DNA from: Candidatus Latescibacterota bacterium
GTDB lineage: Bacteria > Latescibacterota > UBA2968 > UBA8231
Assembly (NCBI GenBank): GCA_965219385.1
Contig: CBDCNM010000002.1
Location: 840,639 to 904,638, forward strand
Reading direction: 5' to 3'
DNA length: 64,000 nucleotides
Positions 44,921 through 47,160 of the stretch are shown here, piece after piece (the stretch's first letter is position 1; each line of letters begins with the position of its first letter). The notes beneath the pieces are model-generated. The model saw only the letters and a list, made by a program, of their open reading frames with translations. It made no database searches and was not told the origin of the DNA. The position numbers and the translations under genes are program-made.

Positions 44921-46753
44921 ATGATGAGCATTGATTTAGATCGAAAACGGCTATCGCAAGCCAAGATGCTGGAAAACATGCGGTGTGACCCGAAGTTGAC
45001 CGAGATGAACAAGATGAACAAGATGAACAAGATGATTGATGTCTACTTTTCATCCTACAAGTCGGGTAATTCGGATTCCGATAGCAGTATTGTTATCTAT
45101 TGTGCTTTGATTCCATTGGATGGGATTGATCGAGTACTTTCTTCTCCTAGTTGGGACCTTCGTTCGGGTGATGGTATGCCTAATGCTTCTGTGTCTTATG
45201 GAAGCGGAGAAAAGAGAGTTGAATATCTCCGGTACGGAGTTAAAAACTGGGTTGAACCTTTGGTTTTTTGTCGCGATTTCTATGACCTATATGATGGCTA
45301 TATGGAAATATGCGAGGAGTTTCGCCTTTTCCACAATCTATATCACGACAGAAAGACGGATAAATACATCAAGATTGATGACGAGGGCAATGAATACACT
45401 GTGGCTGTTGTGGAGCCATACCGCGTCCAGATAAGGCTCAAGGAGATTCGTCAGTTCTTGGCAATTAAGGAGATGTACCTATCAATCCAATTCGATTGCC
45501 GAGAACATTCGACGTATTCTCTGAAAGAATTCGGACTTGAAAAGGGAGAAACGCATCAACGGAATAGTTTTATGCGTTGGTGTCATGGCTATGGTGATTG
45601 GGATTTAGCTAAATATAAATCTTTTAGTAGGTTGGTTGGAAAGCGACTTATTAAGCCCCTGCCGAAATCCCAGAGCGGTTTATGGGGATTTGCTGAGGAA
45701 CCTCAGAAAAGGCATATCGAATTTATCATCGGTGTTGACGAGAACGGAGATGAGATCACCCACACATCCGACCCGGATGCTCTGGCAAATTATTTTGGAG
45801 CGAATCCAGATGCGTCCCATTACCTTACCCCTGTGCATTTTCGCAAACAGGTTTTAGACAAATACTACCAAGAGTCCAGTAAATACTCCGTAGAGGATTC
45901 AGTCCTGTCGTGTGGATACCTGTGGGGCCTGAATATTGACAACCATCACGACGATAAAGTCTGTGCGTGGTTGGGCGATCTTGGACGAGACCTTCCTTAT
46001 ACAGAACAACTACACTGGCGGGCGCACAATATTCCACCCAAAGGCGGTGTGAGTAAGACCTATTTTAAGCGTCAAATTTTGGCCGAGTTCACAGATTCAG
46101 ATCGACCTGAGCACTTGTTCAGGCAACGTTATCAGGATTTACAAAAGGCATGTAAAGAATGTCTTGGTTGGCAGTTGTTGTTGCCGCTGGACCCTGGTGA
46201 CGATTACCATTTCCAAGGCTTGAGAATTCCAGCCACTGATGAGCAACGCGATTTTGATGCATTGGTCTTGAGCCTCACAAAGATACTCATTGATTCCTTA
46301 AATGAAAGGCGCCTAAACACGCTGATTCCGGACGATCAGAAAGCGAAACTTAAAGAAGGTAGCATTGCACGTCTTGAAGCTGTCCTTAGTTCCCGCGATG
46401 TTGAAGGTGCCGCCAACTGCGTTTCTTTTTTAAGGAACCTTCAGAGCCTGCGTTCCAGTAGTGCCGCACATCGCAAAGGTCGCCCCTATCAAAAAATTGC
46501 TAAAGACTTCGGCGTTGAGAGTCAGAGTTTACGCGATGTGTTCACCGGAATTCTCCAGCAGGCTTTAGATGTTCTGGATTACTTCATTCTTCTTGTGCAG
46601 AGCGGCCGAATCGACCCTGAAATCATTGAACAGAATAAAATAGAAGAAGGATACGCTATTCTCGGTGAGTTGGTTGGATTCTGCGAATCGGATCGAACCG
46701 ATGGATCTATCAACCATGATGAAGTCATCTATGAATTGCGTTCAAAACCATGA
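44921..46753 (+). CDS. Hypothetical defence-island protein with C-terminal HEPN-like RxxxxxH motif and antitoxin-like tail
   Basis: AAGGAGG RBS; 'LRNLQSLRSSSAAHRKG'; ends 'GFCESDRTDGSINHDEVIYE'; ATGA overlap with the PIN gene. Confidence 0.6.
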   Translation: MMSIDLDRKRLSQAKMLENMRCDPKLTEMNKMNKMNKMIDVYFSSYKSGNSDSDSSIVIYCALIPLDGIDRVLSSPSWDLRSGDGMPNASVSYGSGEKRVEYLRYGVKNWVEPLVFCRDFYDLYDGYMEICEEFRLFHNLYHDRKTDKYIKIDDEGNEYTVAVVEPYRVQIRLKEIRQFLAIKEMYLSIQFDCREHSTYSLKEFGLEKGETHQRNSFMRWCHGYGDWDLAKYKSFSRLVGKRLIKPLPKSQSGLWGFAEEPQKRHIEFIIGVDENGDEITHTSDPDALANYFGANPDASHYLTPVHFRKQVLDKYYQESSKYSVEDSVLSCGYLWGLNIDNHHDDKVCAWLGDLGRDLPYTEQLHWRAHNIPPKGGVSKTYFKRQILAEFTDSDRPEHLFRQRYQDLQKACKECLGWQLLLPLDPGDDYHFQGLRIPATDEQRDFDALVLSLTKILIDSLNERRLNTLIPDDQKAKLKEGSIARLEAVLSSRDVEGAANCVSFLRNLQSLRSSSAAHRKGRPYQKIAKDFGVESQSLRDVFTGILQQALDVLDYFILLVQSGRIDPEIIEQNKIEEGYAILGELVGFCESDRTDGSINHDEVIYELRSKP

Positions 46754-47160
46754 TTTTTGTCGATACTGGTGCCTGGATTGCCCTTTCCGATCGCAGGGAT
46801 CAACGTCATAAGGACGCTTTGAGAATTTACAACAACTTAGCACATCAGAAAGCTCGGCTTTTAACGACAGACTATGTGATTGATGAGACCACAACTTGGC
46901 TCAGATATAGAGTGAATCACCCGGTAGCAGTTAAGTTTTTCGACTTTATTGAACGCGCTGGAGAAACAGATGTTTTAACCGTCGTAGAAATCGATAGAAC
47001 CCTTTTTCAGAAAGCCAAGCGGCTTTTTCGTCGATACGATTCTACAAAGTTATCATTTACAGATTGCACCAGTTTTGCGGTTTGTCAGACGCGTAGAATC
47101 TCTGAGGCGTTTGCTTTCGATCGGCATTTTACGATAAGGGGGATAACTTTGCTTAAGTAG
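46750..47160 (+). CDS. vapC: PIN-domain (VapC) toxin
   Basis: 'IFVDTGAW', 'YVIDET', 'SFTDCTSF', 'FAFDRHF'. Confidence 0.9.
   Translation: MIFVDTGAWIALSDRRDQRHKDALRIYNNLAHQKARLLTTDYVIDETTTWLRYRVNHPVAVKFFDFIERAGETDVLTVVEIDRTLFQKAKRLFRRYDSTKLSFTDCTSFAVCQTRRISEAFAFDRHFTIRGITLLK

Follow-up and report, generated by a model that had tools for sequence, protein, structure and literature searches.

A VapB-derived tail joining a defence-type gene to vapC in Latescibacterota and other phyla: a possible addiction tag

Introduction

In PrrC and RloC, an ABC ATPase is fused to HEPN, and the HEPN nuclease gene lies beside a type I R-M locus. In VapBC toxin–antitoxin pairs, the C-terminal half of VapB is the toxin-neutralising part. 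VapC20 is described as cutting 23S rRNA unless it is bound by VapB20 (PMC7891357), and a second report describes both neutralising segments that function on a neutral carrier and antitoxins that combine a sensory domain with a separate neutralising segment (PMC10440598). Among anti-phage proteins, the C-terminal region of Avs2 and Avs3 is described as a shared terminase-binding sensor, with the TPR domain of Avs proteins contributing much of the sensor pocket. HepS is reported to be a HEPN tRNase triggered by phage tail tips (PMC13043305), Upx to sense terminase, although it is stated to be without structural homology to Avs, and the Avs7 sensor to recur in STAND-less proteins, one of which carries HEPN (PMC12803255).

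The locus considered here lies in a 64,000-nucleotide stretch of DNA from a Candidatus Latescibacterota bacterium (hereafter, the window), in which an R-M gene, a gene for a 610-aa protein and a vapC gene follow one another. It resembles VapBC in having a PIN toxin with conserved acidic residues, whose nearest solved relative is VapC20, and an antitoxin-derived segment directly upstream with an ATGA overlap, but a distinct antitoxin gene is missing, as is the N-terminal domain of the antitoxin, and the segment instead ends the 610-aa protein. The predicted fold of residues 2–248 of this protein is similar to that of the C-terminal ~230 residues of Avs3; unlike in Avs2 and Avs3, however, the putative sensor is N-terminal, the predicted effector is HEPN and no sequence similarity was detected. 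As in HepS, Upx, Dsr1 (PMC12803255) and the HEPN protein with the Avs7 sensor, in which sensing of a phage protein and killing reside in a single polypeptide, the 610-aa protein likely does both, but none of these is reported with the Avs2/3 C-terminal sensor fold or with an antitoxin tail. CreTA is a comparable case, in which a toxin penalises cells for losing a defence gene (PMC12737573), but it is RNA-based and needs Cascade function, whereas the link here would be a same-frame peptide that is escaped by in-frame deletion. With PrrC and RloC the locus shares a gene for a nuclease, here a predicted HEPN one, adjoining an R-M gene, but it has no ABC ATPase, and the R-M gene is type IIG-like and optional (13/42 full-length loci). 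In the open literature searched, no report was found of this family, of the tail fusion or of a STAND-less HEPN protein with this sensor; subscription papers and preprint supplements may include the family among homologues of the sensor.

Organization of the Locus

The three-gene, same-strand array described in the first-pass annotation was recovered as open reading frames on the + strand: the R-M gene at 41809–44907 (1032 aa), the gene for the 610-aa fusion protein at 44921–46753 and the vapC gene at 46750–47160 (136 aa). The ATGA overlap claimed between the stop codon of the second gene and the start of the third is present at 46750–46753, and no small open reading frame lies between the two, in agreement with the claim that vapC has no antitoxin gene of its own. 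The upstream gene, labelled plainly as R-M in that annotation, is more exactly a type IIG-like nuclease-methylase with an N6 methylase, a type ISP coupler and a specificity domain (Pfam, PADLOC) and without a helicase match. The 610-aa protein comprises predicted sensor-fold, middle and HEPN-like domains and an antitoxin-derived tail. Contigs from 4/4 runs (two studies, one possibly the source sample) span the HEPN motif, the tail and vapC with 0 letter differences, which rules out misassembly as the source of the fusion.

The G+C content drops to 0.44–0.48 over 43–47 kb, compared with about 0.63 in the surroundings, and promoter and terminator scans gave signals no better than chance level. 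A 397-bp direct repeat, 98% identical between its copies at 40123–40519 and 47935–48331 and corresponding to the 3′ end of an oxidoreductase gene, flanks this island and suggests insertion or local duplication; the second copy joins an FG-GAP fragment at about 47593–47930. An IS5-type element of 912 bp is present at 40729–41640 and again at 21279–22185, with 23 other genome copies at ≥99%. Near the N-terminus of the 610-aa protein, a 9-bp unit in three to four copies (44993–45028) encodes an MNK repeat that is missing in close homologues. Elsewhere in the window, an ordinary pair of Phd/YefM antitoxin and PIN toxin is located at 53573–54281 on the − strand.

The Antitoxin-Derived Tail and VapC

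The tail, whose resemblance to VapB-type C-termini had been noted from the sequence, comprises the final ~44 residues (aa ~567–610; 46619–46753, + strand) of the 610-aa protein. A search with residues 562–610 retrieved stand-alone proteins of 59–76 aa, the second half of which is 67–77% identical to the tail, and these stand-alone genes precede the same VapC clade; among the matches listed, most of 37 metagenome loci retrieved with a tail alignment hold such a gene, commonly overlapping vapC. Because of this homology and this shared position before the same VapC clade, the tail is identified as the C-terminal half of a VapB-like antitoxin of ~76 aa, of which the vapB start and the N-terminal half are gone, and the noted resemblance thus reflects common descent. 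With only the C-terminal half kept, the fusion lacks the DNA-binding N-terminal domain by which antitoxins autoregulate. In more distant relatives, the tail is found at the end of RHH and AF2212-like proteins ahead of vapC. The heads of the closest stand-alone antitoxins matched no family, and the tail profile matched none of the solved structures.

The third gene encodes a PIN protein (Pfam PIN, E 1.2e-12), and a profile of its clade found VapC20 as the nearest solved relative (E 1.5e-16). Residues D5, E46, D105 and D124, which we take to be the catalytic acidic residues, are at least 90% conserved among 62 sequences and align to VapC20. On these relationships, the tail likely keeps the adjacent VapC inactive.

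Predicted Domains of the 610-aa Protein

The AlphaFold2 model of the 610-aa protein has a pLDDT of 92.6 except in the tail, where it falls from 77 to 51. A Foldseek search with the whole model gave no match at E ≤ 0.001. For the β-rich N-terminal domain (aa 2–248; 44924–45664, + strand), a VIA-align comparison with 48,161 chains gave a single match, residues 1848–2076 of Avs3 (Z 10.4, rmsd 3.4, 164 aligned), with the runner-up at Z 3.5; Foldseek paired the same regions with a probability of 0.99 and E 0.015. Against this resemblance count that the match is to one structure, at 13% identity, and that much of the pocket in Avs proteins comes from the TPR domain; at the sequence level, 0/73 family members match an Avs model, and the Avs3a profile found no match in this genome or in 14 controls. 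From its position at the end of the chain, we infer that the matched Avs3 range is the terminase sensor; in the 610-aa protein, this predicted sensor fold stands at the N-terminus. No STAND NTPase family of Pfam was found in the 610-aa protein, one of 73 members shows no more than a weak AAA_22 match, and searches for STAND or TPR domains in the protein gave no match; having no STAND, it is not an Avs. The middle domain (aa 249–391; 45665–46093, + strand) is the most conserved stretch of the family, and it showed no fold match among the matches listed, which were taken up by one other domain.

Residues 414–562 (46160–46606, + strand) form a predicted helical domain that matched several HEPN chains along the full length of those chains, most closely 5yep_B (Z 7.3, rmsd 3.9, 122 aligned) and then others at Z 5.6–6.5 (7ae2_A, 6.5; 2hsb_A, 6.3; HepS 9oik_A, 6.0), values that lie below the caution level of the tool for helical bundles and are equalled by non-HEPN lyase bundles. 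Because of these ties with unrelated lyases, it is the motif more than the fold that argues for HEPN; the Foldseek search with the whole model found no HEPN chain either. The R-x5-H motif of HEPN RNases, placed by the first-pass annotation at 46451–46471, is indeed encoded there on the + strand as R511-x5-H517, within the predicted bundle. An R-x4-6-H pattern arose in 96.8% of 2,000 shuffles of the 610-aa protein, and the real protein holds three, so that the evidence lies not in the presence of the motif but in its conservation: across alignments of 150 and of 73 homologues, H517 never varies and R511 is kept in at least 90%, and the pair is intact in 42/42 full-length tail-bearing proteins and in 6/12 C-half proteins.

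Family and Genomic Context

The 610-aa family comprised 2,874 proteins among 8,000 candidates scored and, at 50% identity, 1,989 clusters that are mostly tail-free; a typical member has about 545 aa and stops short of the tail. The tail motif is found in 83/120 of the closest relatives of the 610-aa protein versus 3/150 of the best representatives. The 610-aa protein itself had no match in Pfam, PADLOC, NCBIfam, PHROGs or PDB sequences; with PADLOC 2.0 / NCBIfam 20 profiles, 0 matches to it and single weak ones among 73 members were obtained, remote membership being possible, and a search of the ESM Atlas yielded unnamed clusters at most. Among 50,697 annotated phage records, the family had no match, and on plasmids it occurs in 14 records, every one annotated as "hypothetical."

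For tail-free members, 79 neighbour representatives were surveyed, 56 of them scanned with Pfam and 32 with PADLOC. A defence gene (type IIG or type I R-M, Thoeris, AbiD or PDC-S39) lies no more than two open reading frames away in 10/28 tail-free loci, a raw count with no background control. Plasmid copies adjoin a Gamma-Mobile-Trio locus and a CBASS-like locus, and two others are found amid hypothetical genes. The family thus sits in a defence-like context, which is in keeping with the defence role suggested for the large protein. Two members have unusual architectures, P0181 with an added C-terminal nucleoside-phosphorylase-like domain and an apparently worn HEPN motif, and P0133 with a helix-turn-helix (HTH) fused at the N-terminus; these may be possible effector swaps on a shared sensor.

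Distribution, Linkage, and Selection

The tail was found in 24/168 genomes of the phylum of the window, which named records of close relatives also indicate is likely Latescibacterota, 53/151 Poribacteria and 11/151 Caldilineaceae. A total of 84 loci were analysed, with three stand-alone antitoxins and two weak matches left out and duplicates counted once. An intact adjacent vapC is present in 62/84 tail loci, the remainder having a contig end (3) or a broken (10), absent (8) or displaced (1) vapC. By class, the intact adjacent gene accompanies 37 of 42 full-length loci, nine of 12 C-half loci, three of four N-half loci, two of three loci with a split body, the one locus with an internal deletion, three of 11 short loci (one with a weak partial tail), four of five DUF2806 loci, three of five R-M enzyme loci and none of the single locus with a HicB-like remnant. 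Conversely, in two phyla every vapC match with E ≤ 1e-55 (17/17 and 36/36, 53 in total) comes after a tail, one of them behind a 1.07-kb insertion and two with a stop. Nine weaker Poribacteria matches comprise six after a tail or diverged tail, two after a truncated body and one fragment. Homologues in three phyla therefore share tail and vapC, as the first-pass annotation had proposed to check, and its own alternative, a single accidental fusion confined to this genome, is not supported.

The end motif of the tail is intact in 60/62 loci with an intact adjacent vapC versus 4/9 in which vapC is absent or displaced (kin are not independent in these counts), and a normal tail end is also kept in 9/10 loci with a broken vapC. 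Values of dN/dS over 18 disjoint pairs (N-domain, 0.27; middle, 0.18; HEPN, 0.17; tail, 0.23; vapC, 0.23) indicate purifying selection on all four parts of the body and tail and on vapC. The vapC tag is nevertheless easily shed, being broken, absent or displaced in 19/84 loci, four of them full-length.

Several individual loci deserve mention. L001 carries a Nitrospinota label, yet its vapC and the genes around it cluster with loci of Latescibacterota, and it may be a misbinned contig. The diverged Poribacteria copies L231–L234 are missing the N-terminal domain; they begin at about family position 240 and are followed by a diverged vapC. In L013/L140, a transposase-looking 326-aa open reading frame separates a clipped tail from an intact vapC.

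Separability of the Modules and Other Carriers of the Tail

The shortened forms retain the native start and run from it into the tail in frame, with no fewer than seven distinct deletion junctions among them. The tail and an intact vapC occur together in 24 loci without the full-length protein, and in 16–18 of these the open reading frame of the tail has no N-terminal domain (nine C-half, two short, and the R-M and DUF2806 carriers). A site-specific cassette was considered and rejected, since the junctions differ among fusions. Tail-free full-length copies are common in Poribacteria, and the tree scatters them among the tail-bearing ones; a single clade of tail-bearing proteins was rejected (p-AU 1e-5, 28 rows), and the intermixing also appears in a 65-row quick tree. 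One capture of the tail followed by at least two losses fits this pattern, with which repeated capture is also compatible.

The tail also terminates R-M enzymes (five loci) and DUF2806 proteins (five loci); a search for long tail-bearing proteins found none, but it was a weak search, as R-M fusions exist. In L147, L148 and L149, a type IIG-like R-M enzyme ends in a diverged tail before an intact vapC that forms its own clade, and these are candidate R-M–antitoxin fusions; L145 and L146 are also R-M enzymes with the tail. In the window, the R-M end with the ribosome-binding site (44895–44920) resembles the tail start (46633–46660), and a deletion between these similar sequences would yield the R-M fusion seen in L145. 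DUF2806 proteins, which have a weak Abi_alpha match, carry the same tail in two phyla (L141, L143, L200, L204 and L209; P0282 and P0284), and in L141 and L143 a SMEK-NACHT gene is located upstream. A comparable join, in L029 (2461–3753), fuses a 430-aa gene, presumably mnmA, to the second half of the stand-alone antitoxin, and vapC there is mostly gone. This re-use of the tail on other genes and the Avs3-like N-terminal domain are additions to the first-pass annotation.

Possible Function of the Fusion

The reading that we favour, to which we give even weight for and against, is that a widespread defence-type gene has acquired a VapB tail and that the tail and VapC would serve mainly as an addiction tag on its reading frame rather than to guard the R-M enzyme. 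As the comparisons above show, the tail, homologous to a vapB-like C-terminal half, takes the place of the stand-alone gene before the same vapC clade; the fusion probably arose by an in-frame deletion that brought this half of the antitoxin onto the defence gene. Because this half stands at the end of the gene, antitoxin would be made solely when ribosomes read through the whole host gene. A frameshift, a nonsense change or an insertion in the body would then stop the antitoxin supply and free the VapC already present, probably to cleave rRNA or tRNA and arrest growth, whereas an in-frame deletion or an earlier loss of vapC would escape the penalty; such losses and deletions are the commonest broken forms seen. 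Judging from the predicted folds, the body probably acts as a phage-triggered nuclease independently of the tail: through its N-terminal domain it would recognise a phage protein, with the ATPase of the large terminase as the likeliest candidate, and thereby switch on the HEPN RNase. During infection, a stop in translation together with decay of the tail could add VapC as a second brake, a side effect with no specific coupling. Against strict addiction count the frequent loss of vapC and two of the three loci in which the body is split by a frameshift or stop, L160 and L162, which keep an intact vapC; strict addiction predicts lethality there, unless there is an assembly error, an internal restart or silencing of vapC through the ATGA coupling, and such coupling may indeed silence it.

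A more inclusive proposal, which we hold only tentatively, treats the locus as a single-gene anti-phage system in which an Avs2/3 sensor without STAND or TPR domains would directly switch on a HEPN RNase, while in these phyla the portable VapB tail would make whichever defence gene it joins (the 610-aa, R-M or DUF2806 gene) the sole antitoxin of VapC, so that disabling this gene by mutation or by phage would free a second toxin.

The first-pass annotation envisaged a tighter arrangement, in which the large protein holds VapC inactive and may release it on phage sensing. The holding part remains likely, as noted above, but release as the main function is weakened. In its full form, as two-effector abortive infection in which binding of a phage protein at the N-terminal domain (or its degradation) both activates HEPN and releases tail-held VapC, this coupling appears unlikely to us. 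The retention of an intact adjacent vapC in 37/42 full-length loci across three phyla, the purifying selection on every part and the defence-like nature of the other tail carriers are in its favour, as is the precedent of antitoxins with a sensory domain and a separate neutralising segment. However, the tail and vapC outlive the full-length protein in 24 loci and the N-terminal domain in 16–18, tail-free full-length copies recur in a family of which few representatives (3/150) carry the tail, and the falling pLDDT of the tail gives no sign of its packing on the body.

It is also conceivable, and in our judgement about as unlikely, that the fusion is a passenger: a chance deletion would have made it, the tail would be kept solely because vapC needs it, and the defence gene would be neither protected nor helped. 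The junctions are varied and A-rich, short-homology deletion between the similar R-M end and tail start accounts for one R-M fusion, a similar antitoxin join to a housekeeping-looking gene exists in L029, and each module is lost independently, all of which would suit an accident; yet the fused state persists through divergence to about 55–60% identity across three phyla, and selection on vapC is as strong as that on the body.

That the large protein keeps watch over the R-M enzyme encoded upstream and unleashes HEPN or VapC once a phage inhibits it, by the analogy with PrrC drawn in the first-pass annotation, is very improbable, for although an R-M gene lies directly upstream here, is upstream of or fused to the tail in 28/84 loci and in three genomes (L147–L149) bears its own diverged tail before an intact vapC, it is an optional neighbour that is absent from 29/42 full-length loci (28 of them with at least 4.8 kb of upstream DNA), 33 Poribacteria loci adjoin a divergent oxidoreductase in its stead, and the 610-aa protein has no ATPase domain.

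Implications

For the family itself, which has ~2,000 clusters and no Pfam, NCBIfam, PADLOC or PHROG label, the analysis offers a hypothesis, namely that its members are a minimal terminase sensor wired to an RNase; if this is true, the Avs C-terminal sensor can function without an NLR-like scaffold. For the fusion with VapB that we favour as an addiction tag, the natural in-frame deletions and partner swaps suggest an antitoxin shrunk to 44 residues and passed as a tag from one defence gene to another. Such a tag would bear on the upkeep of costly defence genes and on how guard systems may arise from ordinary toxin–antitoxin pairs by one deletion.
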